A stretch of DNA of 64,000 bases from Patescibacteria group bacterium (GTDB lineage Bacteria > Patescibacteriota > Patescibacteriia > UBA10025 > JAHIVO01), in contig JBAZNF010000001.1 in assembly GCA_041649335.1 (NCBI GenBank), positions 21,285 to 85,284 of the forward strand. The letters are read 5' to 3'. A program made the translations under genes and the position numbers. The notes under the pieces were generated by a model, which saw only the letters and a list, made by a program, of their open reading frames with translations, made no database searches and had not been told where the DNA came from. This document shows, in pieces, positions 27,246 to 50,257 of the stretch; position 1 is the first letter of the stretch, and each line of letters opens with the position of its first letter.

Positions 27246-28319
27246 TCAAACGCGTAACATATAGCTTAGTTGCTGTGGGTCGCTGGCATATTGCAGGGCG
27301 TCTTCCAGCTTGACTTCGTTGGTCTTGACCAGTTCGGCCAATGACCAGTCCAGCGAGACCATTCCTTCGGCCCGAGACGTTAAAATAATGTTGTTGATCT
27401 GGTACAGCGAGCCTTCCTTGATGAGCGATTGGATGGGCGGCGTTGAGGTCATGATTTCGGCCACAGCCACCTGTCCGCCTCCGATGCGGGGGACGAGCCG
27501 CTGGCAGATGACGGCGGCTAGGTTGGCAGCCAGGTGTTCGCGGATCTGCTGCTGTTCGTCTTTTGGATGTCCGGTGATGATCAGCTCCAGAGTTTTTATG
27601 ATAGTGTCAGCTTCCAGGTTGGCGATGACCAGCCGGCCGGACGTGGCGATATTCATGACCTGCTTGATGACCGCCGGGTTGGGGAGCTCGGACAGGAAAA
27701 CAATATCGATGTCTTCCTGGGTGACGTAGGAGAGTGCCTGTTCAAAACTGTTTGTATCGCGGCCTACCTCGCGCTGTTCAATGATGCTTTTCTGGTTATT
27801 GAAGAGGTATTCGATGGGTTTTTCTATAGTGAGGATATAGTTGGCTCGTTGCCGGTTAATATAGTCCAGGAGCGACGCCGAAGATGTAGTCTTGCCTGAA
27901 CCGAATGACCCGCTGAAGATGACCAGCCCTTTGGTCAGGTTGGCCAGGTTTTCCAGGGTGCTCGGCAGGCCGAGCGATCGGAGCGGCATGATAGTGTTGC
28001 CGATCAGCCGCAGATATGCCGCTACCTGGCCCTTTTGGTGGAAGACGTTTATACGGAACCGAGTTTGTTTCTGAAACTGATAGGCCAGGACGACTTCCTT
28101 GTTTTTTTCCAAGTTGGCAAGCTGGTCCGGGTCCAGAATCGTCTGGAGGAAGCCGCTCATGAATTCTCGGGTGATGATTTTTTCCTCCTCCAGGGTGATC
28201 AGTTTATTGTTCAGGCGGATAACCGGATGACTGCCGATCATCAGGTGAAGGTCTGAAGCTTTTTGTTCGGCCACCAGCCTGAGTATCTTGTCTATGGCCA
28301 ATTTTTCTTGTGTGTCCAT
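27246..28319 (-). CDS. pilT: Type IV pilus retraction ATPase PilT-like (PilT/PilU family)
   Basis: ASDLHL N-terminal motif, Walker A GSGKTT, and a length of about 357 aa. I chose the start at the Met 5 nt after the pth stop (MDTQEKL...). Confidence 0.8.
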   Translation of the reverse strand: MDTQEKLAIDKILRLVAEQKASDLHLMIGSHPVIRLNNKLITLEEEKIITREFMSGFLQTILDPDQLANLEKNKEVVLAYQFQKQTRFRINVFHQKGQVAAYLRLIGNTIMPLRSLGLPSTLENLANLTKGLVIFSGSFGSGKTTSSASLLDYINRQRANYILTIEKPIEYLFNNQKSIIEQREVGRDTNSFEQALSYVTQEDIDIVFLSELPNPAVIKQVMNIATSGRLVIANLEADTIIKTLELIITGHPKDEQQQIREHLAANLAAVICQRLVPRIGGGQVAVAEIMTSTPPIQSLIKEGSLYQINNIILTSRAEGMVSLDWSLAELVKTNEVKLEDALQYASDPQQLSYMLRV

Positions 28320-28323
28320 ATTG

Positions 28324-28854
28324 TTATATATGTATGGTTTCTTCCGAAATGCCGCTGTGTAGGTACCGGGCAATGGTTGCCTTGGCTTTATCCGTTATTG
28401 AGGGAATTTTTTCAAGCTCTTCAGGTGAAAATTTTTGTATGACGTAGGCGTCAGTAGGGATGTTTTCCGGCGGGCGCCCGATACCAAGGCGAATCCGCCA
28501 GAAATGCTGTGTGCCCAGGTGGTCGATAACCGACTGGACGCCGCGATGGCCGGCAGCCGAAGCGTTGACGTTTACGCGGATCGTCCCGAGCGGCAGGTCC
28601 ACCTCGTCATGCACAATCCAGATGTCTGATTGGTTGATTTTATAAAAGTTTTTAATCTCTGATACTGAACGCCCGGACTCGTTCATGTACGTTTGCGGCA
28701 GGCTGATCAGCGCGCTATTGGACAGCTTGGCGAACAACGAGGTGAATTTGTTATCGAAATGCTCAGCCAGCGGCTTGACCGACGCGGCGCCAAGATTATG
28801 CCTGGTCCCAGCGTATTCAGGCTCCGGATTTCCCAGTCCGACGATGAGGATCAT
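28324..28854 (-). CDS. pth: Peptidyl-tRNA hydrolase
   Basis: MILIVGLGNPEPEYAGTRHNLG. Confidence 0.92.
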   Translation of the reverse strand: MILIVGLGNPEPEYAGTRHNLGAASVKPLAEHFDNKFTSLFAKLSNSALISLPQTYMNESGRSVSEIKNFYKINQSDIWIVHDEVDLPLGTIRVNVNASAAGHRGVQSVIDHLGTQHFWRIRLGIGRPPENIPTDAYVIQKFSPEELEKIPSITDKAKATIARYLHSGISEETIHI

Positions 28855-32701: not shown

Positions 32702-32778
32702 GGACGATTAGCTCAGTTGGTTAGAGCGCGGCATTCACATTGCCGAGGTCGAAGGTTCAACTCCTTCATCGTCCACCA
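32702..32778 (+). tRNA. tRNA-Val (anticodon CAC)
   Basis: Cloverleaf GGACGAT...ATCGTCC-A-CCA with anticodon loop TTCACAT. Confidence 0.85.
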
Positions 32779-32809
32779 GACCCTAATTCTATTGACTAAA
32801 AAGCGCACT

Positions 32810-33436
32810 ATGAGATTATCGGCGGGGGATTATGATATTCGAAATAGCGAAACACGCAAAAAAGGCGCTGCGCCCGATCCCGGATCTGATTTCGCATCAT
32901 CACCGAGAGCCTTTATTGTTGAATTGGCAAAGATAGTGTTAATCGCTTTGGCTATCGTTATCCCGGTTAGATATTTCCTGTTCCAGCCGTTTTACGTAGA
33001 GGGCGCTTCCATGGAACCGAATTTTTCCGATTACCAGTATTTATTGATTGATGAAATCACCTACCGGTTTTCCGAACCGCAGCGCGGGGATGTGGTCGTC
33101 CTGAAAATTCCAAGCCAGCGCGATGCCCTGATCAAACGGGTGATCGGCCTACCGAACGAAACCGTGGAAATACGGAACCAGCGCGTGTTCATCACCCAGG
33201 CGGACGGGCAATCGGCCGAACTGAACGAACCTTACCTTGGCGACGGTATCGTGACTCCTGGCAGTTCCAGTACCACGCTTGGCCCTGATATGTATTTTGT
33301 CATGGGGGATAACCGCCCCGTCAGTCTGGATTCACGAATATTCGGGACAGTTATTAAGAAACAAATTATCGGTCGGGCCTGGCTGCGCGTCTGGCCGTTT
33401 AAGGAATTCGAACATTTTACTCCCCCGGTGTATTAA
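32810..33436 (+). CDS. lepB: Signal peptidase I
   Basis: Catalytic motifs GASMEPN and KRVIGLP, plus GDNR..SLDSR. The start was taken after tRNA-Val; the ORF-track start overlaps the tRNA. Confidence 0.85.
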   Translation: MRLSAGDYDIRNSETRKKGAAPDPGSDFASSPRAFIVELAKIVLIALAIVIPVRYFLFQPFYVEGASMEPNFSDYQYLLIDEITYRFSEPQRGDVVVLKIPSQRDALIKRVIGLPNETVEIRNQRVFITQADGQSAELNEPYLGDGIVTPGSSSTTLGPDMYFVMGDNRPVSLDSRIFGTVIKKQIIGRAWLRVWPFKEFEHFTPPVY

Positions 33437-33443
33437 CTTTTTT

Positions 33444-34103
33444 ATGCGACTTACCATCAGCGATTACGATATTGACAATAAGAAGGCCAAACAGGAAATA
33501 AAGGCGGAAAGCAAGGAAAAAAAATCCGGTCCACCGGCGTTTGCCGATTCACCGCGAAGTTTTATACTGGAGCTGGCCAAGATTGTCCTGATTGCCCTGG
33601 CCATCATCGTTCCGATCCGGTATTTTCTTTTCCAGCCGTTTTATGTGCGTGGCGCGTCTATGGAGCCGAGTTTTTATGATAACGAATATTTGATTATTGA
33701 CGAGATCACCTATCGCCTCGCTGACCCGCAGCGCGGGGACGTCGTTGTCATCCGCAATCCCAGCCAGACGAGCGAATTTTTTATCAAACGGATTATCGGC
33801 CTGCCCGGGGAGACCGTCGAAGCCGTGGATGGCCAGATACGCATCATCAACGCCCAGTATCCGGACGGGATTACCTTATCTGAGTCTTACCTAGCCGATG
33901 GCACACTGACAAATAACCTGACGGCGACCAGTGTCCCGGAAGGCAATTATTTTGTCATGGGGGACAACCGTTCAGTTAGTTTGGATTCACGTATCTTCGG
34001 TCCGCTGCCGCGGAAAGATATTGTCGGCCGGGCCTGGTTGCGCGTATACCCATTCTCTGATTTTCAGCATTTTACCCAGCCACTATATAATTTAACACCT
34101 TAA
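33444..34103 (+). CDS. lepB: Signal peptidase I, tandem paralog
   Basis: Same motifs (GASMEPS, KRIIGLPGE, GDNRSVSLDSR). Its N-terminus, MRLTISDYDIDNKK, closely matches that of the upstream copy. Confidence 0.85.
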   Translation: MRLTISDYDIDNKKAKQEIKAESKEKKSGPPAFADSPRSFILELAKIVLIALAIIVPIRYFLFQPFYVRGASMEPSFYDNEYLIIDEITYRLADPQRGDVVVIRNPSQTSEFFIKRIIGLPGETVEAVDGQIRIINAQYPDGITLSESYLADGTLTNNLTATSVPEGNYFVMGDNRSVSLDSRIFGPLPRKDIVGRAWLRVYPFSDFQHFTQPLYNLTP

Positions 34104-35894: not shown

Positions 35895-35925
35895 TTGACA
35901 AAACGTTAATTTCTGTGTTATATTA
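35895..35925 (+). promoter_or_regulatory. Sigma70-like promoter (TTGACA-17-TTATAT) for rpsU-yqeY
   Basis: TTGACA at 35895-35900. Confidence 0.45.
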
Positions 35926-36032: not shown

Positions 36033-36317
36033 GTGGTAGAAGTCAGAAGAAAAGAAGGCGAGTCGCCGGAAAGTCTGTTACGGCGGTTTACTAAAAAAGT
36101 CCAGGCCAGCGGTGTTCTTTTGCGGGCCAAACGCGGACGTTTTTATTCGTCCAAGAAGACAAAACTGGAAATGCGCGAAGTAGCCGCCAGACGGAAACTG
36201 ATCCAGGAAAAGAAGGAATTCCTCCGCAAGATCGGCAAGCTGGATGATTTCATCGACCCGAAGCGTCCGAATAAACGGGGTACCATAAAAAAATTACTCC
36301 AAGCCAGGGTCAAGTAA
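36033..36317 (+). CDS. rpsU: 30S ribosomal protein S21 (GTG start)
   Basis: GAGGAGGTGA RBS 9 nt upstream. The basic 94-aa protein has the S21 N-terminus (VEVRRKEGESPESLLRRFTKKVQASGVL). Confidence 0.85.
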   Translation: MVEVRRKEGESPESLLRRFTKKVQASGVLLRAKRGRFYSSKKTKLEMREVAARRKLIQEKKEFLRKIGKLDDFIDPKRPNKRGTIKKLLQARVK

Positions 36318-36330
36318 CGTATTTTTTTCC

Positions 36331-36780
36331 ATGAGCACAGAGGGCAGGATTACTGAGGATATCAAAACAGCCATGCGCGAGCATGATGATTTCGTGCTGA
36401 CGACACTGCGGATGCTGAAGAGCGCCATCCATAATGCAGCCATTGCCCAGCGGACTAAGACACTGGAAGAGCCGGACGTCGTCAAGACGCTCATGACCCA
36501 GGCGAAGCAGCGGCGGGATGCCATGACGGCATTTACGGCCGGCTCCCGATCTGACCTGGCTGATAAGGAACAGCGGGAATTGGGCATTATCGAAAAATAC
36601 CTCCCGAAACAATTATCGCCGGAGGAGGTTAAAAATATTGTTCAGGCAACTATAACTGAATTAGGCGGTCAGGGGCACGTTTTCGGAGCGGTCATGAAAG
36701 CCGTGATGGCCAAAACGGCCGGCCAGGCAGACGGCCAGGCGGTCAGCCGGGCTGTTAAGGAAGCCCTGGGTGGAAAATAA
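36331..36780 (+). CDS. yqeY: GatB/YqeY-domain protein
   Basis: YqeY family motifs, in the typical rpsU-yqeY arrangement. Confidence 0.85.
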   Translation: MSTEGRITEDIKTAMREHDDFVLTTLRMLKSAIHNAAIAQRTKTLEEPDVVKTLMTQAKQRRDAMTAFTAGSRSDLADKEQRELGIIEKYLPKQLSPEEVKNIVQATITELGGQGHVFGAVMKAVMAKTAGQADGQAVSRAVKEALGGK

Positions 36781-36812: not shown

Positions 36813-39800
36813 ATGAGGGCGCGTACCAATAAAAATAAATTTTTTTTCGGGGCGTTATTCGGCTTTGTTGTCTTTGGGATATTGCTCGGTGCCGCACTCT
36901 GGCTGACCTCATCCCCGTCATTAGCCGTTACCGTCAACCCTAACTTGGGACCGACATTCGGTTTGGGTACGGCTGACCTGGAGTCCACGGTCATCAAGAT
37001 CATCCAGTGGGCGCTCGGGTTTCTGGGGCTGGTCGCCGTGATCATCATCATGTACGGAGGTTTTATCTGGATGACCGCGGCCGGCAACGAGGAAAAGGTA
37101 CGGAAGGCGAAAAAAATCATCACTCAGGCGGTGATCGGCCTGGTTATTATTATGTTAGCCTGGGCAATCGTGACTTTCATCATCGGCCGGCTGAACGGCA
37201 TCCTGAATGGGCCCGGCCAGCAGTTCTGTACTCCCGGCGCGCCGAACGGCTGTTATGATTGTAATGCAGCAGGTACTGCGTACTCTATTTTTGATCAAAC
37301 TAATGGCCCGCAGTGTGTCAGCGGTGATACGTTCCACAAGAAATGGGTTGACCCGGCGCCAAACGAGGATAATGTGCCGCTTTGCAGTATTGTCCAGGTG
37401 CAGTACAATGGGAATTTTGATGCCGGGAGCATCGCAGGAAATGTCGGTTTATATGTTAATTTGGCGACAAACGGCAATGGTGCCGCGTGTAATGCCGCGG
37501 ACGAATGCCGTTCCGGAGTATGTACGGCAAACGCGTGTGTCGGAGATGAAGTCGTCGGTACGTGGCAAGTGGTGGCGTCCAACCATTCATTTTTGGAATT
37601 TTTGCCAAATACGGATTATCTGGAAAACACCGAATATCGGGCGGAGATACGGGCTGGTGTAGCGGAAGAAGCGCCGGCGCGGACGACTGTGCCGTATACC
37701 TGGACATTCACCACCGGCACGACCACGCTGACGACGCCGCCGACAGTGACGCAGATCTACCCGGACGATAACGACACGGGTATTTGCCTGATGACGCCGG
37801 TTCAGGCGAAATTTTCCCAGAAGATGCGCGTGTCCTCAATAAATTCCGGGACAGTCTTGTTGCAGAGCGGCGCGCCGGTACTCCTCAGTACTTTCTCTTT
37901 CCCGACCGTAGCGTCATTCTCCACGAGACCGCAGGCGCCTCTGGTGCCGGATACGGATCATACTGTTACGATGATTGCCGGCACGCCAGGCGGAACCTGT
38001 TCGGTCGCGGGCCCAGGCTGTGACATAAAAAATAATTGCATTACCACATGCGGCGGTACCTGGACGTACAATACCGACGGTATCATGGACGTCTGTTTTA
38101 ACCACCTGGACGGCAACTACAGCGGCACGGATGACGGTTCGGCCGGCGGCGATGACTTTATGTCCATCAACGGCCAGCCTAATCCTGGTGATACTACGCC
38201 GTGGAGTTTCACTACGGATGCAGATACGACTAATACGAAATGTGTCCCGGAAATAACCAGCATTAACCCCGACAATGGTCAGTACAGTGATCCGGCGCCG
38301 GGCGCAGAAATCAGCGGGACGAATTTTGGCATCATCGGCAACGTTACATTCAATAGTGGAGTGTTGGATCAGCTGAATTGTTTTAACGGAGTAAATTGGC
38401 CGAACCAGAATTGCAATGTGTCATGGACCGGCAATACTATCCAAACCCGTATCCCCGGCGGTCCGATCAATTATGGCGGTATCATCCCGTCCAATGGCGC
38501 CAAGGACGGCGGAATAGTGGTGACTATTACGCCCGGCGTGTGTGAGGGCGGCAGCAATGACAATGGCGCGTGCACCGTGGCTAACCAGGCCGCGGACTGT
38601 CCCGGCGGTAAATGCATCGAAGACAGCAACGCCGTCGGTTTTGACGTAACCAGCCCGCAGATCGGGAAAGTGTCCGGATTGGACAAGGCTCCGCATGGCG
38701 GGATCGGACAGTACGTGACCGTTATCAAACGCAATGACAGCAACGCCGGATTTGGAGCAGTCCAGGGACAGGTATTTTTCCGCAACCGGCTGAATGGTGC
38801 GGAGGTAGTCGCGGAATTTCCGCCGGATCCGCCCTGTGATGCGAACTGGTCAGATACGCGCGTCATCATTAAAGTTCCGGATCTGTCAGCGATCGCTACA
38901 GCCTGCGTCGGAAATTGGGCGGCTTGTGTCAATACTGACTCTGAAGTAGCGGTGCAGGTCGTAAAATCTGACGGTACCCGCAGTAATCTGGCATATTTTA
39001 TATATACGAATGAGGCAGCCGGGCCGGGCCTATGTAAAGTTGATCCTGTTTGTGGGGTTGAGGGTACGGCAGTGGTATTGTCAGGAGAAAAATTTGACGG
39101 ACCGAACCCGCACAGCGTCAGTTTTGCTCTCGGGACCAATCCGCCCGTTACAGTGGCCCCGACCAGCTGGACTGATACAGACGTCGGCGCTGACGTCCCG
39201 AATTTGGACAATGCCGAGGACCCGTATGAGGTGAATGTTTCCAACGGCAACGGTGCCAGCAACAGTCTGCCGTTTGAAGTGCCGTGCGGCGGTGTGCCGA
39301 AAGTGGTGGAGACCACAGCATGCAGCCTGCACTGCGTGGGCGGAATCAACGACACCAAATCGTGTTTAAACGACGAATTTTGCGCGCCGGGCGGCGGATC
39401 ATGTATCCAGGACACGTTCCCGTCCCCGAACCCTTATAAGAACGCGACTAACGTCTGCCTGAACGCCGGATTCGGTGCCACGTTCAGCACCCTGATGGAC
39501 CATGCCACACTGAGTGATATCAACATTAAATTATACGATTGTACCGATAACACCTCCGCCTGCGCGACGACGAACGATATCACCCCGCCGCCGGGAAACT
39601 ATTCTGCTTCGGATACGGCTACGAATACCAGTTTCCAGTTTTTTCCGGTTGCCAACCTCACGTCAGACCATTACTACAAGGCGGTTATCAGCAAGGAAGT
39701 GCGCAGCACAACAAACGTTAAGATGGTGAATGATTACGCCTGGACCGTAAAAACACAGGCTGGTACTGACCTATGTCCGGTGACGGGCGTGCTGGTGACG

Positions 39801-42800
39801 CCGGCCAAGACAATCCTGGCCGCCATCGATCCTGATCCCGGATCAACGCAGGACTACGCTGCCGTACCGCTCGGGCCCAAATGTACGTTTATGAATCCCA
39901 ATGGGTACACATGGGGCTGGGACACGCTGCCGTTGGGTGTAGCCACGGTCGCGTCAGTATTGCCGCAGCCGCCGTATAATTCAACGGCCACGGCCATTGC
40001 CGAGGGCACGACCAAGGTCAGGGCGACTACAGAAGGGAAGACCGGGCAGGGGAGTTTGAGTATTATTTTAGATTATTGTGACGCTTCTACAGACTGCACA
40101 AAAGCCGGGCAGTGTCCGGGCAGTATCTGTGACATACCGACAAACCGCTGTACTCCGGTCATTACCGACCGCAACGGCGACGGCCAGGCTTTGTCTCCGG
40201 CCAGCGGCCCGCGCAGTCCTAATCCCGCCCAACCAGGTACGACTGTGACCATCGAGGGTTGTTATTTTGGTTCGTATGTCGTCGGATCCAGCCAGATTCA
40301 ATTTGCCGGGAATGACAGCATCTTCTTCTGTCCCAAACCATGGACGGACAGCCAGATCATCACGTCGGTTCCTGATACCGCACCGCTAGGCAATAACGCG
40401 GTGATCGTCCGGACCGCGGTTGGTTTGACCTCTCCTGGTGTTAATTTTACCGTGACCAATACATGCGAGGGTGGTGTACCGGTGCCCGCTACCGGTGTGC
40501 CCGGGATATGTTCGATTAGTCCGGCTACCGGCAGAAATTTAAGCCAGACGTCATTTAACGGGTATCAATTTACCAGTAATGGCGCGCCGCCGGTGGCAAA
40601 GGCGCAGTTTACACAGGACGGCGGCGGGTACACTGATTCAACAACAGGTTCCAGTGACGCTGCCGGGACAGTGTTTTCCGGGGCCACAGTGCCTGACAAT
40701 GCCGTCTCCGGACCAGCCCGGATGGCTGTGGAGGTCGCTCCAAACCAGTACTGTCCATCAAACAGCCTGACGTTCGGCGTGACCTGTTCGTCCAGTGACC
40801 AGTGCGGCACTGGCTGCTGCGCATACAGTAATTTAGTCCATGCTAAAATTTGCCAGGAGTTAGAAGCGTGCAGTCCGGGTACGCCGGGCACGACCTGCAA
40901 GCTTGACGATGCCGAGCATATAGCCGCTGATTTGTGCCAGCTCGGCAAGACCGTGTCCGGTACTGGGGATTATCGGTGTATTGATGCGGACAGTCATTTA
41001 ACACCGGATAGCCAGGGTACGCCGCCGGTGGTCAGTGGCCCATACCCACCCGGTGCATCAGCACCGTGTGTTACCTGTTGTTCAATGGATATCAATGGCG
41101 ACGGGAGCAACATACCCCAGACAAATACGGGAGGACTGAATTGTACCGCGGATATCGACGCCTGTTCCGGTGCAGGCAGCAACCGCGGCTTGTATTGCGG
41201 CTGCGCGTATGACGTCAATAACCCGGTACCGGGCGATACCCAGTGCGATGACGGAAGCGGGACGTTGGGTTGCGGCAGCAACACCTGTTGTTATGCCCGG
41301 CCACAGTTTACCGGCGTTACGCCGGCCGTACCGGCTCCGCCAAATGGACTTTTATGCCTGAATAATATTTTTACCTTCACCTTTGACCAGCCGATGGATG
41401 CCAGTTCGGTCATACCCGGGACGTCGGTAGAAATGATTGACAGCACAGCCACAAATATCAATATTACTGTTTTAAAAACGACAAACGGTTTTGTCATCAA
41501 GCCCGCGCAGGCGCTTACGCCAGGGCTATCGTATACAATCAGGCTGCGTCGCGACTTGATCAGGAGCAGCAAGGGTATTGCCTGGTCAGCTACGCCTAAT
41601 GACTGGCAGGCTTGGCAGTGGCCGGTAGATATCAATGCCACGATTTGCACGATAAATTCTATAGAATGGCTTTTTATAAAAAATCCTTTATTTAGCTATC
41701 CAGCTCCTGATTATTTCAATTGTTTTACTGATTCGTGCACTGATGACATGAATATTGGTCTCGTTGGAAATCAACATTGGGCTTTTGCCCAAGCACTTGA
41801 TAAGTACAGCAACCCGGTCAGCGCAAATTACAACTGGTCAATAGGAGACCCGACGATAGCGACGGTGGATCCAGCCCAGCACACTTTTTTTAATGATAAT
41901 TTAACAGCCCAGCAGCAGAATGGTCGGACGTCGGTGAATGTCGAAGCAGTGCCGGACTATTTCACCGGTACCAAGACGTCATCCGCCAGAGTGACGGTCA
42001 ATGCGTGCGAGCATCCCTGGCCGAATCCGTTTCCGCCGGAGAATGACACGTTCCCGTATATTGATAACGCCACCCACTTTTCTATTTCGTATTGCCGAGA
42101 CCCCGGCGAGCTACCGTTATTGGCTCCGACCGGTGACGTAGTGGTCAAGGATGGCACCTATCTGCCGGGGAACAAGAAGAACGAGCGGATCAAGGAATTT
42201 TTCTTCACCCGTAACGGGACGGATGACGCCATCGGTATTTTGGTATATGAGAATGAAGGCAACCAGTCGCCTCGTGACTGGTATTTCAGCCAGTTCGGCC
42301 CAGCCGCACCGGAACCCCAGGACCTGACCGTGGACGGGTATCCGGCTGTCCGGGCCGGTACGACGGTTTACGTGTCCGCCTGGAATGCCGTTGGCGCTAA
42401 CGTCGGTGACCGGCTGTACCCGAATATTTACCTGATTTCATACAATGAAGACGCTTCTGACGAGACGGTGGCTATTTATAACCGGATGATCAGTAACTGG
42501 GAATTTACCATCAACATCGGCCTGTCGGAAAAAGAGCAGATGCTGCGCGATATGCGGCGGGTGACGGACCTCACGGCCATATACGCGAAACTGATGACGT
42601 ACCGGACCGATAAGGGGATTTTTCCAAAACTTGAGGGTGGATCATACGTGAAGATGCTGTCCACCTCCAAATGGCCGTCGTGGCAGGATACGCTCGGTAC
42701 CGCAATAAACGGTAACCTGCCCAAAGATCCGATCGACAAGTTTGCCGTCCCTGACCCGCTGATGTGCACGGCCGCAAACCATTATGACCAGACTACCTGC

Positions 42801-45800
42801 TGGAGCGATACCCAAAAAAGATACGAATGTCCGGCCGACTCATTTGTCTATCAATATATGGGCAGTGCGGACGGCAGTATGGCCAGCCTGTTCGCGCATT
42901 TGGAATACCTCCATTACTTAAATGGCGGGTGGTACATCGGCGCTGATCCGGTGTCGGACGTCTGCAATGGCCTGTCCGAAGCGGAATGCCCGTGTTTCAA
43001 CTATGAATATAATGTCACCGGTTCAGCCACGGATCATGACGGTCCGGACATCATCGCCGTTGATTCGCTGGTGCTGAACCAGAACACGACCGTGTCGGGC
43101 ACGCGGGCGCTGGACGTGACGGTCAGTGACGCAGGATCCGGCGTCAATCGGGTGTTATTCTACATTGACGGCATCCTGAACTACACGGATACGGATAACG
43201 CCGTCTGGAGCTGGGATTTCAACACCAGTCAGTATACGGACGGCAGCCATACGGTCCGTGTCCGGGCCTATGACAATGCCGGTAACCTGACTGACGGGGA
43301 TTATGCTATCAATATCGACAACAGCGGCCAACCGGATTCTACCGCGCCGTTTGTGACCATCACCACGCCGCAAGACGGGACGACAGTATCGAACCGCAAC
43401 GTCACCTACAGTCCCGATAAATGGATTACGGCGGGAGGGGTCGAGGGCATAGAGGCGTCAAATACCGGGTCAATATTCTGGGTGAACTACCCAGTCGGAA
43501 CATCTTCGTTAAACCGGGTTGATGCCGACCTGACCTTGAGTACATTGCTCAATTCGTTTAATTATCCCAACCCTGATTTGACGTTGAATTTAACACCAGG
43601 GAACAGGGTTTTATATTGGGTAGGCAAAGACAGGTCAACCGGTGATATGCTGGTGACATATACCCCCGATCCTAATGTTGACAGACGAAAAATATTGCGC
43701 ATTCCGGCCGGCGCCGCTCCCAATACCCCGCCAACTTCCATCTATTATTTTACCGGTCCTGGCTTCGATTGGCGCGGCTTTACCCATGCGGTCGGGGCGC
43801 CGGACGGTAAAATTATTGCGGTGATATATTTCCATCAGCTCGCTGTGTATAATCCGAGTACGGGCGTAATTGAGCATTTCCTCGACACGGGCGGACAGAT
43901 TGGCGGTATCGATACTGATAGTGCGGGAAATATTTATATTACACGGGCAACCAACCCCGGCGGCGTGTATAAGTATGACCAGAATTTAAATCTAATCGGC
44001 AGTATTACAAATGCCACCTTTAATCTGCCGATCGGATTAGCCGTCGACGGCCAAACTATTTATGTGGCAAATCAGAATTCTCATGACATTGTCGCGGTGG
44101 ACACCAGCCTGACCAAAGTGGTGCACGTGTTCGGCGAAGCCGGCGTACCGGGCAATGATTTGGCGCACTTGAGTTCTCCGCAGGATGTCACGGTATTCGG
44201 CAATAATTTGTATATTTCTGATCTCATGAACGCGCGCATCCTCCGGGTGAAGACGCTGATCAGCTATGGCGTGCAGATCAACGCGCTGGCTACCGATAAC
44301 CGGCAGGTTTCAAGTGTTAATTTTTCCATCAGGGACGTGGGCAATAATTTAGTTGATGCGTACTCCTGTACCGGCAATACGACCACGACGCTTAGCTGTT
44401 CTTTTGCCCCGCCGTGGGATTCTACCCAGGTACCGAACGGTCCGTATACTATTACTGCCCTGGCGGCGGATAACAGCGGGCATACCGGATCGACGTCCGT
44501 AACCGTCAATGTTGATAATCTGGATCCGATCCGGCCGGTGGTCACATTTGACCAGTCCATACCCGGTCTCTGCGCCGAGGGAACATGCCAAAACAGCGGA
44601 GTCCCGTGTGATTATCTTAATCAGTGCGGCGGCGGGGAATTGTGCGTGTTCAGCGTGGCCTGCGACCAGACGAATACACCCGCTGTCTGCAGCAATAATT
44701 TTAATAACCAGATGTGCTTGCGAAGCGGTTCAGTTACTATACCGGTCTCGGCTACCGACAATAAACAGGTCAACGAGGTGAAATTTTATGTAGACGGGCT
44801 GTTCATGAGCAATGGCATCCATCAGCCGGGGACGTGTGTTACGGGCGGACAGGCATGTACGTCAGATGCTGATTGTACCGCCCCAGATACGTGTGATTTG
44901 GATAATTGGAGCTGGAATTGGGACTCCCAAGGTTACTCAAAAGGCGTGTGCGCCAGCCATTGCAGCGTTACGCTCGGCCAGATGTGCGTCGCCAGCAGCG
45001 ATTGCCCGGCCAATGAGGTGTGCGTCGCGGCCAATGGAATCGGATTGGAGTGCAATGCTGACAGTGAATGCAATCCCGGCCTGACCTGCCCCGGCCACCA
45101 GGTGGTAGCGTATGCTTATGATGATGCCAGGAATATCGGCACGGACACGATGTTCATCCCGGTCGACGTGGCGCAGGACGACGCAGAACCGCCGACGGTC
45201 AGTTTTATCCCGCCGACGCCCAATGAAGGGACGTCCATTGATAACTCTATTTTAGTGCGCGTACAGGCTGATGATAATTATGGCGTCAATCGGGTGAATT
45301 TCTATATGGACCATGTACTGCGGTACACTGCTCTGGCCGGGCAGGCGACAGAATGGACCGTTGATACGACGTCGGTTCCCGACGGATGGCATTCGTTCCA
45401 GGTGGACGCACTGGACGCCCGCGGCAATCGCAGCACAAGTATCGAACGGAATTATAACGTCCGCGGACCCGGCGGCCCCTTGATTACCGATCCGTTTATT
45501 ACGCCGGACACCGGCCCACTGGGAACTGTGTATACCATATATGCCAACGTGACGGATTATGACGGCGTTGACAGCGTCGTCGTGCCAATCCAAAGCCCCG
45601 ACGAAACGGATTTGGCTCCTCCGGTGCTTATCACGCTGGGGTTAGTCTCTGGCGATAATATTTCCGGGTTATACAGCGGTACCTGGACGTCAACTGTGGT
45701 AGCGGCATTGTGGGTGGACGTGCAGGCTCGCGACATACTTGGTAACACCTCGGAATACGAGAATATCCCCGGCCGGCCGGCCTGCGACAACAACGGGACC

Positions 45801-46316
45801 TGCGACAGTCCGGTGGAAACCAACGCGAATTGTCCGCTTGACTGTCCGGCCACGTACCCGGTGATTACTAGCGTTTTGTCTGCCTCGGGCCAGGTCGGTA
45901 TCGCGTTTAGCTACCAGATTATTGCCACGAACGGTCCAAACACGTTTACCGCGACAAATTTGCCAAACGGGCTTACGGTCAATGCGGCCGGGCTGATCAG
46001 CGGTACGCCGGCCGTCGGATCAAATGCCACCTATACGGTTCCGCTGACTGCCACTAATGCATTTGGCACAGATACAAAAAACCTGACCCTGGTCATCCAG
46101 GGACCATGTGTGGCGCACAGCGCCGGCCCATGTACAGGCGCCCTGACCGGCAATGACAACTGTTGCCTCTCAAGTGATTTCTGTAATCATAACGGGACAA
46201 AGACATATACCGCTGACGATACCTGTAGTAGTAAAAAAATTCCGGGGTCGCCTTGCGATTATTGGTTTTGGTGCATTTCAGATGAATGCAGTTTCTTGAC
46301 AAAACGATGTTTATAA
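36813..46316 (+). CDS. Giant (3167 aa) Cys-rich surface protein with an N-terminal VirB2/TrbC-like (T4SS-pilin-like) membrane domain
   Basis: A single uninterrupted ORF. The N-terminal ~130 aa contain two hydrophobic helices flanking ...IIMYGGFIWMTAAGNEEKVRKAKKIITQAVIG.... The rest is extracellular: dense Cys pairs, NHL-type beta-propeller repeats (about nt 43860-44250), three Ig-like Big-type domains (about nt 44260-45440; ATDN(R/K)QV...V.F blocks) and a He_PIG-type putative Ig domain (about nt 45850-46090; LPNGLTVNAAGLISGTPAVGSNATYTV). Confidence 0.9.
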   Translation: MRARTNKNKFFFGALFGFVVFGILLGAALWLTSSPSLAVTVNPNLGPTFGLGTADLESTVIKIIQWALGFLGLVAVIIIMYGGFIWMTAAGNEEKVRKAKKIITQAVIGLVIIMLAWAIVTFIIGRLNGILNGPGQQFCTPGAPNGCYDCNAAGTAYSIFDQTNGPQCVSGDTFHKKWVDPAPNEDNVPLCSIVQVQYNGNFDAGSIAGNVGLYVNLATNGNGAACNAADECRSGVCTANACVGDEVVGTWQVVASNHSFLEFLPNTDYLENTEYRAEIRAGVAEEAPARTTVPYTWTFTTGTTTLTTPPTVTQIYPDDNDTGICLMTPVQAKFSQKMRVSSINSGTVLLQSGAPVLLSTFSFPTVASFSTRPQAPLVPDTDHTVTMIAGTPGGTCSVAGPGCDIKNNCITTCGGTWTYNTDGIMDVCFNHLDGNYSGTDDGSAGGDDFMSINGQPNPGDTTPWSFTTDADTTNTKCVPEITSINPDNGQYSDPAPGAEISGTNFGIIGNVTFNSGVLDQLNCFNGVNWPNQNCNVSWTGNTIQTRIPGGPINYGGIIPSNGAKDGGIVVTITPGVCEGGSNDNGACTVANQAADCPGGKCIEDSNAVGFDVTSPQIGKVSGLDKAPHGGIGQYVTVIKRNDSNAGFGAVQGQVFFRNRLNGAEVVAEFPPDPPCDANWSDTRVIIKVPDLSAIATACVGNWAACVNTDSEVAVQVVKSDGTRSNLAYFIYTNEAAGPGLCKVDPVCGVEGTAVVLSGEKFDGPNPHSVSFALGTNPPVTVAPTSWTDTDVGADVPNLDNAEDPYEVNVSNGNGASNSLPFEVPCGGVPKVVETTACSLHCVGGINDTKSCLNDEFCAPGGGSCIQDTFPSPNPYKNATNVCLNAGFGATFSTLMDHATLSDINIKLYDCTDNTSACATTNDITPPPGNYSASDTATNTSFQFFPVANLTSDHYYKAVISKEVRSTTNVKMVNDYAWTVKTQAGTDLCPVTGVLVTPAKTILAAIDPDPGSTQDYAAVPLGPKCTFMNPNGYTWGWDTLPLGVATVASVLPQPPYNSTATAIAEGTTKVRATTEGKTGQGSLSIILDYCDASTDCTKAGQCPGSICDIPTNRCTPVITDRNGDGQALSPASGPRSPNPAQPGTTVTIEGCYFGSYVVGSSQIQFAGNDSIFFCPKPWTDSQIITSVPDTAPLGNNAVIVRTAVGLTSPGVNFTVTNTCEGGVPVPATGVPGICSISPATGRNLSQTSFNGYQFTSNGAPPVAKAQFTQDGGGYTDSTTGSSDAAGTVFSGATVPDNAVSGPARMAVEVAPNQYCPSNSLTFGVTCSSSDQCGTGCCAYSNLVHAKICQELEACSPGTPGTTCKLDDAEHIAADLCQLGKTVSGTGDYRCIDADSHLTPDSQGTPPVVSGPYPPGASAPCVTCCSMDINGDGSNIPQTNTGGLNCTADIDACSGAGSNRGLYCGCAYDVNNPVPGDTQCDDGSGTLGCGSNTCCYARPQFTGVTPAVPAPPNGLLCLNNIFTFTFDQPMDASSVIPGTSVEMIDSTATNINITVLKTTNGFVIKPAQALTPGLSYTIRLRRDLIRSSKGIAWSATPNDWQAWQWPVDINATICTINSIEWLFIKNPLFSYPAPDYFNCFTDSCTDDMNIGLVGNQHWAFAQALDKYSNPVSANYNWSIGDPTIATVDPAQHTFFNDNLTAQQQNGRTSVNVEAVPDYFTGTKTSSARVTVNACEHPWPNPFPPENDTFPYIDNATHFSISYCRDPGELPLLAPTGDVVVKDGTYLPGNKKNERIKEFFFTRNGTDDAIGILVYENEGNQSPRDWYFSQFGPAAPEPQDLTVDGYPAVRAGTTVYVSAWNAVGANVGDRLYPNIYLISYNEDASDETVAIYNRMISNWEFTINIGLSEKEQMLRDMRRVTDLTAIYAKLMTYRTDKGIFPKLEGGSYVKMLSTSKWPSWQDTLGTAINGNLPKDPIDKFAVPDPLMCTAANHYDQTTCWSDTQKRYECPADSFVYQYMGSADGSMASLFAHLEYLHYLNGGWYIGADPVSDVCNGLSEAECPCFNYEYNVTGSATDHDGPDIIAVDSLVLNQNTTVSGTRALDVTVSDAGSGVNRVLFYIDGILNYTDTDNAVWSWDFNTSQYTDGSHTVRVRAYDNAGNLTDGDYAINIDNSGQPDSTAPFVTITTPQDGTTVSNRNVTYSPDKWITAGGVEGIEASNTGSIFWVNYPVGTSSLNRVDADLTLSTLLNSFNYPNPDLTLNLTPGNRVLYWVGKDRSTGDMLVTYTPDPNVDRRKILRIPAGAAPNTPPTSIYYFTGPGFDWRGFTHAVGAPDGKIIAVIYFHQLAVYNPSTGVIEHFLDTGGQIGGIDTDSAGNIYITRATNPGGVYKYDQNLNLIGSITNATFNLPIGLAVDGQTIYVANQNSHDIVAVDTSLTKVVHVFGEAGVPGNDLAHLSSPQDVTVFGNNLYISDLMNARILRVKTLISYGVQINALATDNRQVSSVNFSIRDVGNNLVDAYSCTGNTTTTLSCSFAPPWDSTQVPNGPYTITALAADNSGHTGSTSVTVNVDNLDPIRPVVTFDQSIPGLCAEGTCQNSGVPCDYLNQCGGGELCVFSVACDQTNTPAVCSNNFNNQMCLRSGSVTIPVSATDNKQVNEVKFYVDGLFMSNGIHQPGTCVTGGQACTSDADCTAPDTCDLDNWSWNWDSQGYSKGVCASHCSVTLGQMCVASSDCPANEVCVAANGIGLECNADSECNPGLTCPGHQVVAYAYDDARNIGTDTMFIPVDVAQDDAEPPTVSFIPPTPNEGTSIDNSILVRVQADDNYGVNRVNFYMDHVLRYTALAGQATEWTVDTTSVPDGWHSFQVDALDARGNRSTSIERNYNVRGPGGPLITDPFITPDTGPLGTVYTIYANVTDYDGVDSVVVPIQSPDETDLAPPVLITLGLVSGDNISGLYSGTWTSTVVAALWVDVQARDILGNTSEYENIPGRPACDNNGTCDSPVETNANCPLDCPATYPVITSVLSASGQVGIAFSYQIIATNGPNTFTATNLPNGLTVNAAGLISGTPAVGSNATYTVPLTATNAFGTDTKNLTLVIQGPCVAHSAGPCTGALTGNDNCCLSSDFCNHNGTKTYTADDTCSSKKIPGSPCDYWFWCISDECSFLTKRCL

Positions 46317-46356: not shown

Positions 46357-47649
46357 ATGAAAAAATTAATGAATGGGTTGGTTATCTTAACAATAGTTGG
46401 CGTCATGTCGGTTGTGGGCATCAGCATAGCCCGGGCTGATACGCAGCCAAGCATCGAGGTGTATGACCCGAGTGATACTGCCGGACCGACATTATCGAGC
46501 ACTGTCGTCAGTCCGACCCAGATCAATCAGGGGCAGTCGCTCAGTATTACCGTAACAGCTGAGGACGTTTCCGGCGTCAGGACGGCTATCGCCAATATCA
46601 AGAGTTCGGTCGGTGCCGTGAAGGCGATTATTCAGCTGTATGACGACGGCAAACATAATGACGGCCAGTCTGGCGATGGCGTGTTTGCCAGTACGTGGAA
46701 TTCAGGCACGAATCAGGATGACAATTATTCAGTGGACATCCAGCTGGCAGACATCTTTGGCCATCCGACCATTGGGTCAAACGCCGCAAGCTTCGTGATT
46801 GGCGCCGGCGCCTCGAATTCCAATACCAACACGACTAATGCAAATACCAACACTTCGGACACCACCGCTCCGGTTATTGCTATCACGTCGCCAAATGAAG
46901 GCGCTGACATCGGTACGTCAAGTATTGATGTGTACGCCAACGCCACAGATCCGGAAAGTACGGTGACAAAAGTTGATTTTTATCTGGACAGCGAGTCGGC
47001 ACCGCACGATACGCAGAATTTTGATCAGCCGTCAGGTAGCGGCGATTACATCTGGGTACTGAATGTCGCATCGCTATCCACAGGATCTCATGTATTGCGG
47101 GCAGTCGCGACCAATGGCGTCGGCCTGACTGCTTCCGCGACGCGGACGATTAACGTTACGTATACCAGCAGCGCCCCGGTGGTGACTATCATCAGCCCGT
47201 TATCTGGTTCGTTTAATGTCGGGACGCCAATTGACGTGAATGTCAGTGCCACCGATGCCACTGACATCACTCGGATTGAGCTGTATACCTCAAAATATGG
47301 CGGCCCGCTGGCAAGTGTTGATATTACTGGTTCGGCGGATACTAATGTTACCACGACTTTGCACATCAATTTGGCGGGCGATATTGCCATGGGAACAGCG
47401 CAGAAATCTGACCTGGCGGTCAAGTGGCCACGATTCCGTTTGCCGTTCGTTTCAGTGGCTGATGCCGCCACCAGTTATAATGTCAATGGTAGTTGTACCA
47501 CGACCACGATCACGGACGACAAGTCAATTTATGCCATGGCGTATAATGCCAGCCTAAGCGCGAATTCCGGTTATGTGACCTATTCCGTCTGGTCTTCCTC
47601 GACATCCTGCACGAACACGGCATCGTCGTCTTCCTCCTCCGCCTCTTAA
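46357..47649 (+). CDS. Secreted Ig-like-domain protein with Ser-rich C-terminus
   Basis: Signal peptide MKKLMNGLVILTIVGVMSVVGISIARA, Big-type Ig-like repeats, and a 40-nt gap after the giant gene. Confidence 0.7.
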   Translation: MKKLMNGLVILTIVGVMSVVGISIARADTQPSIEVYDPSDTAGPTLSSTVVSPTQINQGQSLSITVTAEDVSGVRTAIANIKSSVGAVKAIIQLYDDGKHNDGQSGDGVFASTWNSGTNQDDNYSVDIQLADIFGHPTIGSNAASFVIGAGASNSNTNTTNANTNTSDTTAPVIAITSPNEGADIGTSSIDVYANATDPESTVTKVDFYLDSESAPHDTQNFDQPSGSGDYIWVLNVASLSTGSHVLRAVATNGVGLTASATRTINVTYTSSAPVVTIISPLSGSFNVGTPIDVNVSATDATDITRIELYTSKYGGPLASVDITGSADTNVTTTLHINLAGDIAMGTAQKSDLAVKWPRFRLPFVSVADAATSYNVNGSCTTTTITDDKSIYAMAYNASLSANSGYVTYSVWSSSTSCTNTASSSSSSAS

Positions 47650-47661: not shown

Positions 47662-48297
47662 ATGCCAAATATCAAACAAAACAACGTAGAGGATATTTTT
47701 GAAGGAACCGATGCAGCCGCGGGTAAAAAGATTGCCAAAAATAGTTCTTCCCGCCGCAGCAAAGACGTACCGCGGGCCATGCCCGCACCTCTCCGACCAA
47801 TAGCTGTCACCCCGCCAGCGCCCTCGTCTGTACCGTCAGGGGAACCGAACAACCGCCGGTTCGTGGTCGCCGCCGTTTCATTGGCAGTCGTCCTGGTAGC
47901 GGCCGGCGCTTTGGCCGCCTGGCGCGGAGGCTTGTTTACCCGGACCACGACGACGGATACGACAGAAAACCATAACGCAGTGCAGGCCGTCGTGACTGAT
48001 ACCGACGGTTCAGCTGTAAACTTGAAACCAATCGACAACACAGTTGTCGACACCGACGGCGACGGCCTGGCAGATGCGGAAGAAAAAACGCAGGGGACCG
48101 ATCCGCTGAAATCCGACACTGACGGCGACGGGCTGTTTGACCGCGAAGAGGCAAAAGTGTTCAAGACCGATCCTCTGAAAAGAGATACAGACAGTGACGG
48201 GATTGATGACGGGACGGAAGTCAGGAATGGATATAATCCCGCCGGTTCCGGAAAATTGTATGATCTCACCAATGCGATCACTAATTCATCCCAATAA
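47662..48297 (+). CDS. Membrane-anchored protein with thrombospondin-type-3-like Ca-binding repeats (DTDGDGLxDxEE x3)
   Basis: One TM (FVVAAVSLAVVLVAAGALAAW) followed by TSP3-like aspartate repeats. Confidence 0.7.
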   Translation: MPNIKQNNVEDIFEGTDAAAGKKIAKNSSSRRSKDVPRAMPAPLRPIAVTPPAPSSVPSGEPNNRRFVVAAVSLAVVLVAAGALAAWRGGLFTRTTTTDTTENHNAVQAVVTDTDGSAVNLKPIDNTVVDTDGDGLADAEEKTQGTDPLKSDTDGDGLFDREEAKVFKTDPLKRDTDSDGIDDGTEVRNGYNPAGSGKLYDLTNAITNSSQ

Positions 48298-48309: not shown

Positions 48310-49425
48310 ATGCCAATCAGCCCGCCACCGCCCCCTAACACAAATGAAGATTTACACAAGCCGATCAAGGTGTACACCATGCCGGAGAAGTTCCATGTCG
48401 ATGACCACGGTTCTTCAGGCGGCGGATCAAAACTGATGATCTGGCTTATTGTCATTTTAGCGGTGGTCTTGCTCGGCGTGGCCGGCTTCCTGGCCTATAA
48501 GAAGTTCATGCCATCGACCAATACGACTGAGAATACGAATGAAATAAATGCCAATGTGGCTGTGAACGAGAATATGAACGGAAATGCGAACAAGAATACG
48601 AATTCAGCGGTTAATACAAATTTGAATATCAACGTTAATTCCTCAATTAATACGAACACCGCAGGGAATCAGAACATCTTCCCGAATTTTAACGTCAATA
48701 ACACGAATACGGCATTCAATGCAAATATTACCCCAGTCGTCTCGAGCCAGGACAGCGACAGTGACGGGCTGACTGACGTTGAGGAGACACTGTTTAGCGC
48801 CAACCCGATAAAGGCTGATACGGACGGGGACAGCTATGCCGATGGCCAGGAAGTGGTCGGCGGATATAATCCGACCGGGACGGGATCTATCGAAAGCAGC
48901 AGTGCCCTACGGACATACTATGATCCTTCATATTTCTATTCAATCCTGTATCCGGCCAGCTGGGCGTCATCAGATGACCCCCAAAATACGCGAGGCAAGA
49001 TGTTCACAACCAGTGGAGAATTTGTCGAAGCCAGCGTGCAGGAGAATCCCGCCAACCTGTCTGCACGTGACTGGTATCTGACCCAATCTCCCGGTGTCAA
49101 TTCTTCCCAGATTTCCAGCATCACCAATTGGGACAAGACCTTGTCAGGCGTATTGAGCGTGGACGGTCTAACCGCGTATTTTGTCAGCGGGCAGAAAGTG
49201 TACATCATTAATTATAACCTCAACATATTGACCCAGGCGAATTACAAGTCAACTTTTCAGATGATGTACCGGAGTTTTAAGGTGGGCGTAGTGCCGGTCA
49301 CTACCAATACGAATGCAAATGTCAACGTAAATACGAATACGGTAAATAAAAATTCAAACTCCAATACCAACACCAATACCGCAAACACAAATAGTAATTT
49401 AAATTCCGCAACTAATCGCCTCTGA
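48310..49425 (+). CDS. Membrane-anchored Asn-rich protein with TSP3-like repeats and a C-terminal globular domain (paralog of 47662)
   Basis: TM (LMIWLIVILAVVLLGVAGFLAY), N/T-rich low complexity, the repeats DSDSDGLTDVEE and DTDGDSYADGQE. Its stop overlaps the ybeY ATG by 1 nt. Confidence 0.7.
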   Translation: MPISPPPPPNTNEDLHKPIKVYTMPEKFHVDDHGSSGGGSKLMIWLIVILAVVLLGVAGFLAYKKFMPSTNTTENTNEINANVAVNENMNGNANKNTNSAVNTNLNINVNSSINTNTAGNQNIFPNFNVNNTNTAFNANITPVVSSQDSDSDGLTDVEETLFSANPIKADTDGDSYADGQEVVGGYNPTGTGSIESSSALRTYYDPSYFYSILYPASWASSDDPQNTRGKMFTTSGEFVEASVQENPANLSARDWYLTQSPGVNSSQISSITNWDKTLSGVLSVDGLTAYFVSGQKVYIINYNLNILTQANYKSTFQMMYRSFKVGVVPVTTNTNANVNVNTNTVNKNSNSNTNTNTANTNSNLNSATNRL

Positions 49426-49871
49426 TGTGGGTATCGGTTAACCAGGTCGTCCCGGTCGGCGTTCGTGTCCAGACTGTCAAGCGCGTGCTGGCAGCGGCTG
49501 CCCGAGTCATGCCTCGGTATGCGTATTCTGAAATTTCTGTCGCTTTCGTCACTGACGCAGTCAGTCGTCGCCTCAACCGCCAGTACCGTCGGATTGACCA
49601 TCCGACCGACGTCCTGTCTTTTTCCGAGCGTGATAGCCGTATACGGATGAGCCGGCAGCCGGGGTATCTCGGTGAAATAATCATCGCTATGCCCCATACT
49701 GCGCGGCAGGCCAGACGCCTTGGGCACACGTTGCGTCATGAAATCACCATATTATTAATCCATGGTTTTTTGCACTTGGTCGGATACGACCATTCGCGGC
49801 GCGCCGACGCACAGCGGATGATCAGGCTGGAACAGCGCATCTTCCGGCAGATTCAGAGTCCTGAACACTAA
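49425..49871 (+). CDS. ybeY: rRNA maturation endoribonuclease YbeY
   Basis: Zinc motif HGFLHLVGYDH. Confidence 0.9.
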   Translation: MWVSVNQVVPVGVRVQTVKRVLAAAARVMPRYAYSEISVAFVTDAVSRRLNRQYRRIDHPTDVLSFSERDSRIRMSRQPGYLGEIIIAMPHTARQARRLGHTLRHEITILLIHGFLHLVGYDHSRRADAQRMIRLEQRIFRQIQSPEH

Positions 49872-49888
49872 TACTGGTCAAGATATTT

Positions 49889-50257
49889 ATGCCACTTATT
49901 GATTTTGCCAAGCTGGTAAAGAGTTTCCGGTATGCTGGCCGGGGATTTTGGTATACCATAAAAAATGAACAGAATATCCGATTGCATCTGCTGATCAGCC
50001 TGGTGGTCATTATCCTTATGGTATATTTCGAAGTTGCGCTCTGGCAGGTCGTCACACTGCTCATGGTCATGATGTTTGTCCTGGTTCTGGAGTTGATTAA
50101 TACCATTTTTGAAAAAGTGTCAGATATCCTCAGGCCGCGGATACATATGTATGTGGAGGTTATAAAGGATGTCATGGCCGCCGCGGTGCTGGTGGCGTCA
50201 ATCGGGGCGGTTGTGATTGGTATTCTTATTTTTATCCCGTATTTTGTTTCTGGTTAG
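49889..50257 (+). CDS. dgkA: Diacylglycerol/undecaprenol kinase family (DgkA)
   Basis: Three-TM DgkA fold with conserved E...N...E residues. Confidence 0.8.
   Translation: MPLIDFAKLVKSFRYAGRGFWYTIKNEQNIRLHLLISLVVIILMVYFEVALWQVVTLLMVMMFVLVLELINTIFEKVSDILRPRIHMYVEVIKDVMAAAVLVASIGAVVIGILIFIPYFVSG

Follow-up and report, generated by a model that had tools for sequence, protein, structure and literature searches.

The stretch analysed here, below termed the window, comprises 64,000 nucleotides of a Patescibacteria group bacterium (GenBank assembly GCA_041649335.1, contig JBAZNF010000001.1, positions 21,285 to 85,284 of the forward strand). Positions 36813..46316 (+) form a single uninterrupted open reading frame (ORF) with an ATG start that encodes a protein of 3,167 amino acids (aa), hence termed the giant. 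The giant combines an N-terminal VirB2-type pilin module with a long Ig-like stalk, a conserved head and several distal modules. Its gene follows rpsU and yqeY and precedes three genes for smaller surface proteins, which are followed by ybeY and dgkA. An identical protein (P0121) is encoded in the ENA metagenome assembly ERZ27247363 (contig k141_786413, 200,811 bp). Intact orthologues with 67%, 60%, 39% and 34% identity occur in independent assemblies, and all four loci have the same gene order as the window. The ORF is thus one intact gene, as proposed in a preliminary description made from the sequence alone, and it is not interrupted in any of these four orthologues. The segments of the giant are listed below.

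36813..36926 (+): aa 1-38, basic N-terminal tail and hydrophobic signal/anchor helix ending in SLA/V, a probable signal peptidase I site with predicted cleavage (AlphaFold2 (AF2), hydropathy, sequence)
36948..37205 (+): aa 46-131, VirB2-type pilin core with the conserved TFGLGTADLES segment, a helix at 53-88, the basic loop TAAGNEEKVRKAKK and a helix at 93-131 (PF18895, NF045849, AF2 hairpin)
37218..42029 (+): aa 136-1739, Ig-like stalk (Big_5 at 307-389, 871-978 and 1497-1598; TIG at ~1136-1213) with small modules of 4-10 Cys in between (Pfam, Cys map)
42030..43067 (+): aa 1740-2085, conserved head that defines the family, without a Pfam or NCBIfam match; a PsbP/Mog1/LpqN-like sandwich followed by a type-IV-pilin/pseudopilin-like half
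43080..43322 (+): aa 2090-2170, Big_7/Big_13 Ig-like domain (Pfam)
43350..44252 (+): aa ~2180-2480, Cys-free region of ~6 blade-like repeats, probably an NHL/SGL-type beta-propeller (one NHL repeat, weak SGL match, sequence)
44271..45404 (+): aa 2487-2864, Big_7 domains alternating with three dense Cys-knot modules (2587-2635, 2675-2694, 2713-2759)
45858..46097 (+): aa 3016-3095, He_PIG putative Ig domain (Pfam)
46107..46310 (+): aa 3099-3166, 10-Cys module at the C-terminus, without an LPXTG motif, transmembrane segment or RTX repeats

The three strongly hydrophobic segments of the giant are all N-terminal (aa 8-37, 58-92 and 99-131). After aa 131 only one segment, at aa 987-1005, is marginally over the hydropathy cut-off, and none is strongly hydrophobic. 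The charges are +4 in the N-terminal tail, -2 before the helix, +5/-2 in the inter-helix loop and 0 after the helix. Hydropathy and this charge pattern together place the inter-helix loop in the cytoplasm, and the part after about residue 131 (~3,040 aa) is predicted to be extracellular.

The N-terminal pilin module

The preliminary description likened the N-terminus to a VirB2/TrbC-type pilin fused to a giant ectodomain, and two curated libraries of hidden Markov models (HMMs) agree with it. The Pfam family T4SS_pilin (PF18895) matches aa 59-123 with an E-value of 1e-12; the score is 48.4 bits in the scan of the whole protein and 53.6 bits for aa 1-140 by themselves, both above the cut-off of 26.6. 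The NCBIfam family NF045849, annotated as a pilin-like conjugal transfer protein, scores 45.1 bits on aa 1-140 against a cut-off of 40, and 39.6 bits, slightly below it, on the whole protein. The motif that the preliminary description had cited lies at aa 78-115.

A database search with aa 1-160 yielded 528 matches. The best 120 of them are nearly all free-standing Patescibacteria proteins of ~117 aa with PF18895, several under the name 'pilin', with up to 78% identity. An HMM built from 120 free pilins matches the giant ORF with an E-value of 6e-53 and detects no further pilin gene in the window. The pilin core shares 68-79% identity with the free 117-aa pilins encoded in related genomes and 76-90% with the cores of other close giants (P0122-P0139). 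It is 82% identical to the core of a Kerfeldbacteria giant that has only 39% identity overall. A comparison for gene conversion between giants and free pilins of the same genome showed no excess of identity (74-76% within the genome, 72-73% between genomes).

The AF2 model of the N-terminus, computed with 94 free pilins as the alignment, contains helices at 8-32, 53-88 and 93-131. The predicted local distance difference test score (pLDDT) is 81-92 across the helical hairpin at aa 61-130. AF2, hydropathy and charges agree on a pair of hydrophobic helices with a short basic loop between them and both termini outside, after a signal peptide whose cleavage is predicted. In size the giant departs from a stand-alone pilin (about 100-130 aa), as only the first ~131 of its 3,167 aa match one. 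The TrbC family PF04956 is also matched by 3 of 95 free pilins (best E-value 1e-6). An hhalign comparison of the pilin profile with TraA of the F plasmid indicated no relation, and PDB sequence searches with aa 1-160 and with the pilin profile returned nothing useful. Judged by its sequence, the module is a member of the Patescibacteria VirB2-like pilin family, and its tie to classical pilins rests mainly on curated profiles.

The fusion recurs in Patescibacteria, as had been suggested: 166 proteins of at least 1,000 aa have the module, always at the N-terminus. The signal peptide, the two-helix hairpin and the basic loop are common to the giant, the pilins of Patescibacteria type IV secretion systems (T4SS) with PF18895 (Quinonero-Coronel et al. 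2025, PMC12102498; Southlakia, PMC10633639) and Mbov_0395 of the Mycoplasma integrative and conjugative element (NF045849). Unlike these proteins, the giant has a C-terminal ectodomain of ~3,040 aa and is encoded outside any T4SS locus or pilin array. Its pilin subfamily is also very conserved, whereas the described Patescibacteria pilin arrays average 25% identity.

Stalk, head and protein family

The ectodomain is rich in Ig-like and Cys-containing modules. Pfam identifies Big_5 four times, Big_7 at least five times, TIG, Big_13 and He_PIG, so the Ig-like and He_PIG domains of the preliminary description are present and its count of three Big-type domains was too low. The giant contains 116 Cys (3.7%) and none of them in aa 1-138. 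Twelve compact modules with at least four Cys each hold 76 of the 116, with a recurrent C-x5-C-x4-5-C-x4-5-C spacing. The regular spacing of the Cys pairs described earlier therefore stands, and their comparison with knottins and EGF remains descriptive only, since no EGF or knottin family reaches threshold over the giant and Pfam gives only sub-threshold Dickkopf_N and Dumpy matches. The proposed NHL-type blades have partial support. One NHL repeat (aa ~2403-2424) scores 25.7 bits against a cut-off of 20, only when aa 2080-2520 are scanned alone, and a weak SGL match accompanies it; the ~6 blade-like repeats at aa ~2180-2480 are discerned by eye, in a region present in the four closest orthologues only.

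No LPXTG-like motif, RTX repeats or C-terminal hydrophobic anchor was found in the giant. An LPXTG/sortase-dependent or RTX adhesin was therefore rejected, as was an S-layer protein of the S-layer homology (SLH) type, because Pfam and NCBIfam detect neither SLH nor another known S-layer domain. The giant shares a long tandem Ig-like stalk, distal binding modules and Ca-binding elements in the system with giant adhesins that are anchored via LPXTG or exported by type I secretion (MSCRAMMs, SiiE/LapA/BAP-type). In contrast to them, it lacks LPXTG and RTX and is anchored N-terminally via the pilin hairpin.

A search with the whole protein yielded 92 homologues. Those of 1,800-4,200 aa come from Kerfeld-, Uhr- and Falkowbacteria and unnamed Patescibacteria, and nearly all are annotated just as 'Ig-like domain-containing' or 'DUF4215'. 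Segment-wise comparison revealed only two near-universal parts, the pilin module (85 of 92) and the head at aa 1740-2085 (74 of 92). Both are also among the best conserved parts between close orthologues and have 75-87% identity there, whereas much of the stalk has 45-60%. In a library of 1.84 billion proteins the head profile matches at least 1,718 representatives of 50%-identity clusters, 1,328 of them with E-values of at most 1e-30. The distance from pilin to head in 156 full-length members has a median of 1,614 aa (interquartile range 1,455-1,757). The head forms the C-terminus in 81 of these members and is followed by more than 500 aa in 66, the giant of the window among them. The giant has the full signature of the family: N-terminal PF18895, a long Ig-like stalk, the ~340-aa head and the rpsU-yqeY / ybeY-dgkA-ftsAZ context.

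The AF2 model of the head has a pLDDT of 82 and a predicted template modelling score (pTM) of 0.79. In the half at aa ~1900-2085 an alpha1C helix is predicted to pack on an antiparallel sheet, as in type IV pilins and pseudopilins of type II secretion systems (T2SS). This half is internal and lacks a prepilin (class III) leader and a hydrophobic alpha1N. It thus differs from the pilin and pseudopilin heads of EpsG/GspG/PulG and Thermus PilA4 by its internal position and its fusion to a PsbP-like domain, and its sequence similarity to them is weak (hhalign E-value 0.006). A PDB sequence search with the head profile returned nothing useful.

In six loci (L023, L032, L035, L036, L040 and L043) the giant is split into a pilin-bearing and a head-bearing ORF, which could reflect frameshifts, assembly errors or real split genes. 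Assemblies of the TPA/binchicken type that contain the gene cassette described below, which is specific to Patescibacteria, often bear the title 'uncultured Gammaproteobacteria' (L009, L015, L018, L020 and others). The cassette also occurs on short contigs binned as Methylomirabilis, Thermoplasmatota and Planctomycetota. These labels outside Patescibacteria are probably placeholder names or result from mis-binning.

The conserved gene cassette and its surroundings

The giant is the first gene of a conserved cassette; the other elements of the cassette and its flanks are as follows.

35895..35924 (+): candidate sigma-70-like promoter upstream of rpsU, TTGACA-18-TATATT with an extended -10 TG, the best match in the region (pattern match)
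36033..36780 (+): rpsU (36033-36317) and yqeY (36331-36780), conserved upstream neighbours (Pfam, synteny)
46357..47649 (+): 430-aa secreted protein with a Sec signal peptide, Big_7 domains and a choice-of-anchor-X motif, found in Kerfeld-like relatives only
47662..48297 (+): 211-aa single-pass membrane protein with extracellular TSP3 (Ca-binding type) repeats, a conserved partner
48310..49425 (+): 371-aa single-pass membrane protein with an Asn-rich linker, TSP3-like repeats and a C-terminal PsbP-like domain, a conserved partner
49425..50257 (+): ybeY (49425-49871, 1-nucleotide overlap with the 371-aa gene) and dgkA (49889-50257), conserved downstream neighbours (Pfam, synteny)

ORF calls and Pfam confirm the arrangement read earlier from the sequence, with rpsU-yqeY upstream, distances of 40, 12, 12 and -1 nucleotides from the giant to ybeY, and ybeY-dgkA downstream. 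In the window dgkA is followed by ftsA and ftsZ. The C-terminal domain of the 371-aa partner is homologous to the PsbP-like half of the head (single-sequence hhalign E-value 2e-5; profile-profile 99.65%, E-value 4.5e-25).

We scanned one genome per species with an alignment of eight head sequences and found 56 loci in Kerfeld-, Falkow-, Uhr-, Buchanan- and Kuenenbacteria. Nearly all loci with sufficient flanks have the order hisS-HIT-rpsU-yqeY-giant-[1-3 TSP3 proteins]-[371-like protein]-ybeY-dgkA-ftsA-ftsZ, so the synteny of rpsU-yqeY-giant-ybeY, for which the preliminary description had suggested a comparison, is kept across relatives. An optional extra gene between yqeY and the giant encodes a pilin fusion of 610-980 aa. 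This shorter second fusion, which lacks the head, is present in Falkow-/Buchananbacteria-type loci (L027, L028, L030, L041, L044-L046, L048, L051, L054 and L060). The complete Kerfeldbacteria genome CP181398.1 (L004 1-20074) has the giant as a tandem duplicate of 3,314 and 3,357 aa, in which the pilin cores are identical, the heads are identical and the rest differs.

The largest giant among the 56 loci has 5,990 aa. Family members of 5,773-5,990 aa (L061 1361-19330; L064 1340-18658) share the pilin anchor and the head, and they are possible counterparts of the Patescibacterium danicum proteins above 5,000 aa, for which no full-length homologues were found (PMC11809585).

The promoter-like site before rpsU and the lack of terminator-like sites in the intergenic gaps of the rpsU-dgkA region fit co-transcription of rpsU, yqeY, the giant, the three membrane proteins, ybeY and dgkA from a promoter upstream of rpsU. 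The context is thus consistent with the co-expression with housekeeping genes that was suggested before. Promoter-like matches in the region are in total no more frequent than expected by chance; the rpsU site is suggestive by its position only.

The window was already thought not to be a conjugation locus, and Pfam detects no VirB4, VirD4 or relaxase among its gene-like ORFs of at least 100 aa. T4SS genes are also absent from 77 kb of the source contig. Jackhmmer searches seeded with VirB4, TraG and VirB6 of the Ti plasmid covered 1.1 Mb at more than 60 giant loci (within ~10 kb) and gave no match; these seeds are distant, and the sensitivity is hence limited. A T4SS is likely encoded elsewhere in this genome, because VirB4 and VirB2-like pilins are common in Patescibacteria (2,417 of 3,035 assemblies and 1,948 assemblies, respectively; PMC12102498) and a pilin array is essential in Southlakia epibionticum (Wang et al. 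2023, PMC10633639).

Otherwise the window encodes housekeeping functions: suf genes, sodA, ferritin, two dsbA-like genes, lgt, parAB, topA, dprA, mfd, pilM, a T2SSE ATPase, pth and der, and further lytR, two lepB, hisS, nrdR, nrd, htrA and glnA. The DsbA-like thioredoxin genes are in tandem (9095-9811 and 9978-10745), followed by lgt (10771-11559). Such a pair is an unusually prominent extracytoplasmic disulfide machinery for a genome of small size, in keeping with the large number of exported proteins rich in Cys. At 32702-34103 lie two signal peptidase I (S26) genes in tandem. The mechanical TTG start of the first is overlapped by a tRNA-Val (32702-32778), so its real start is further downstream.

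The genes pilM and a T2SSE-family (PilT/PilB-like) ATPase at 26180-28373 (-) lie beside pth and der, apart from any further genes of type IV pili, and the same isolated arrangement occurs in L001 and L002. The ~800 nucleotides between mfd and pilM (25384-26180) contain no convincing ORF and no Rfam match at the gathering threshold; Rfam reports tRNAs only. A 113-aa ORF at 58894-59235 has a precomputed match to PF27854 (Heavy_Cys_CGP), which was not reproduced in our Pfam scan. Just beyond the window (L068 17029-19975), ComEC-type domains are encoded as two genes (DUF4131/Competence, then Lactamase_B) directly after an IS200-like Y1 transposase gene.

Possible roles of the giant protein

We consider it probable, with some reservation, that the giant is an extracellular fibre anchored in the cytoplasmic membrane and provided with an adhesive head. 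It would be exported by the Sec pathway and cleaved by signal peptidase after SLA(38), and the DsbA-like proteins encoded in the window could support its oxidative folding. The stalk, roughly constant in length, would then place the head beyond the wall, at a defined distance from the membrane. The head and the lineage-specific distal modules may bind a partner surface, either on a host cell or on the envelope or pili of the cell itself; the surface of a host or partner cell is the most plausible. The partner proteins with TSP3 repeats and the PsbP-like domain could serve as the base of the structure or recognise the same ligand. On both membrane faces the pilin module is strongly conserved, which suggests that it contacts a conserved partner, such as free pilins and/or components of a T4SS, and does more than anchor the protein passively.

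The cassette is accordingly a strong candidate for a host-contact apparatus, and host attachment is a reasonable inference. Giant surface proteins have been inferred to mediate host attachment in Vampirococcus lugosii (PMC8080830) and P. danicum (PMC11809585). These proteins resemble the giant in being very large, predicted to be membrane- or surface-located, rich in Ig/fn3 domains and encoded by putative symbionts with small genomes, and P. danicum belongs to the same class-level group (ABY1). The two papers describe no common anchor or conserved head, whereas the family described here has a pilin anchor, a head, a constrained stalk length and a fixed genomic position.

Several observations weigh against an adhesive fibre. 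Surface exposure, cleavage, disulfides and the binding partner of the giant are all inferred from sequence. The structural links are weak: Foldseek of the pilin model against PDB gave 0 matches, and that of the head gave nothing significant. The alignments to classical proteins are weak as well. With Agrobacterium VirB2 (annotated Ti plasmid), hhalign gives an E-value of 0.003, a probability of 10.5% and 31% identity over 54 columns that span both helices in a sensible register. With Escherichia coli GspG, the head aligns in the correct register with an E-value of 0.006 and a probability of 6%. Finally, near-universal presence in the class and adjacency to ftsA and ftsZ suit a structural role in the envelope equally well.

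A true modular VirB2-type pilin is conceivable, and we regard it as doubtful. Here a Patescibacteria T4SS would extract the module from the membrane and co-polymerise it with the 117-aa free pilins, so that the ectodomain would be displayed on, at the tip or at the base of a conjugative-type pilus. Conservation as high as in free pilins extends to the extracellular TFGLGTADLES segment and to the cytoplasmic/lumenal loop GNEEKVxxAKK, and all invariant residues of the free pilins are kept. Free pilins co-occur with giants in the same genomes; for example, P0056 and P0103 are encoded on one contig with the giant P0127. In F- and T-pilus structures the C-terminus of VirB2/TraA-type pilins faces the pilus exterior. 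The wide occurrence of VirB4 and the essential Southlakia pilin array, both cited above, count in the same direction. On the other side stand the lack of T4SS genes around this and the related giants, and the free pilins of a Kerfeldbacteria genome, which are scattered among housekeeping genes and remote from T4SS genes. Moreover, a pilus of such type has not been seen in these lineages, and an appendage of 3,000 aa is sterically hard to accommodate except on a rare or terminal subunit.

Modular type IV pilins, such as PilB and PilC of Streptococcus sanguinis, consist of a pilin module with a grafted functional domain. The principle of a polymerisation or anchor module fused to adhesive modules is shared with the giant. 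The S. sanguinis proteins use a class III signal peptide and type IV pilus machinery, whereas the giant has a VirB2-type hairpin and an appendage 10-30 times larger, and its polymerisation is hypothetical.

In the other serious alternative, which we consider improbable, the giant would be a structural component of the envelope, such as an S-layer-like coat or a wall-spanning scaffold tied to cell division, and no host-contact device. Such a role would agree with core, single-locus, class-wide conservation directly upstream of ybeY-dgkA-ftsA-ftsZ, with the probable co-transcription with housekeeping genes, with the constant stalk length and with the Ca-binding TSP3 partners. S-layers have also been reported in Patescibacteria (bioRxiv 10.1101/2024.05.28.596244). 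However, Pfam and NCBIfam detect no known S-layer domain in the giant, and ~3,000 aa is large for a lattice subunit. The stalk and distal modules diverge fast and are shuffled between lineages, which is typical of interaction surfaces under diversifying pressure.

A secreted or surface-tethered carrier that delivers an enzyme or toxin to prey, polymorphic-toxin-like or cell-wall-degrading, is very unlikely. A link to cell-wall degradation has been drawn for giant genes in other bacteria with a predatory or episymbiotic life (bioRxiv 10.1101/2023.11.21.568195), and PsbP/DUF1795-like folds include immunity and chaperone proteins of type VI secretion systems, but Pfam and NCBIfam detect no catalytic or toxin domain anywhere in the giant, and its C-terminus is a Cys-knot and no toxin module. 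An assembly artefact, in which a free-standing pilin gene was mis-joined or frame-fused to a surface-protein gene, would account for the near-identity of the module in length and sequence to stand-alone 117-aa pilins, yet it was rejected as hardly credible, because the fusion is intact with the same neighbours in independent ENA, NCBI, JGI and Logan assemblies at 34-67% identity and the module is always N-terminal in the 166 large proteins.

VirB2-like pilins of Patescibacteria and, separately, giant putative adhesins are already known. In the literature covered, which is incomplete, we found no description of the pilin-anchored architecture, the head, the head paralogue in a partner protein or the conserved locus. 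Should the giant be a modular pilin, it would be the first of the VirB2 (T4SS) type, with a conjugative-type pilus that displays a 3,000-aa adhesin. The head of this adhesin would imitate a type IV pilin and have its counterpart in a membrane-bound partner. The two pilus systems of these bacteria would thereby be linked, and the need for a pilin-bearing T4SS in epibiotic growth would be explained.

For the adhesive fibre that we favour, the pilin module and the head together provide a sequence signature for finding a family whose current annotation is just 'Ig-like domain-containing protein'. The 'giant proteins without homologues' of this class may follow one common plan of pilin anchor and head. 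The locus offers a concrete, class-wide candidate both for host contact in Patescibacteria and for the function of their VirB2-like pilins, an oddity among monoderms.

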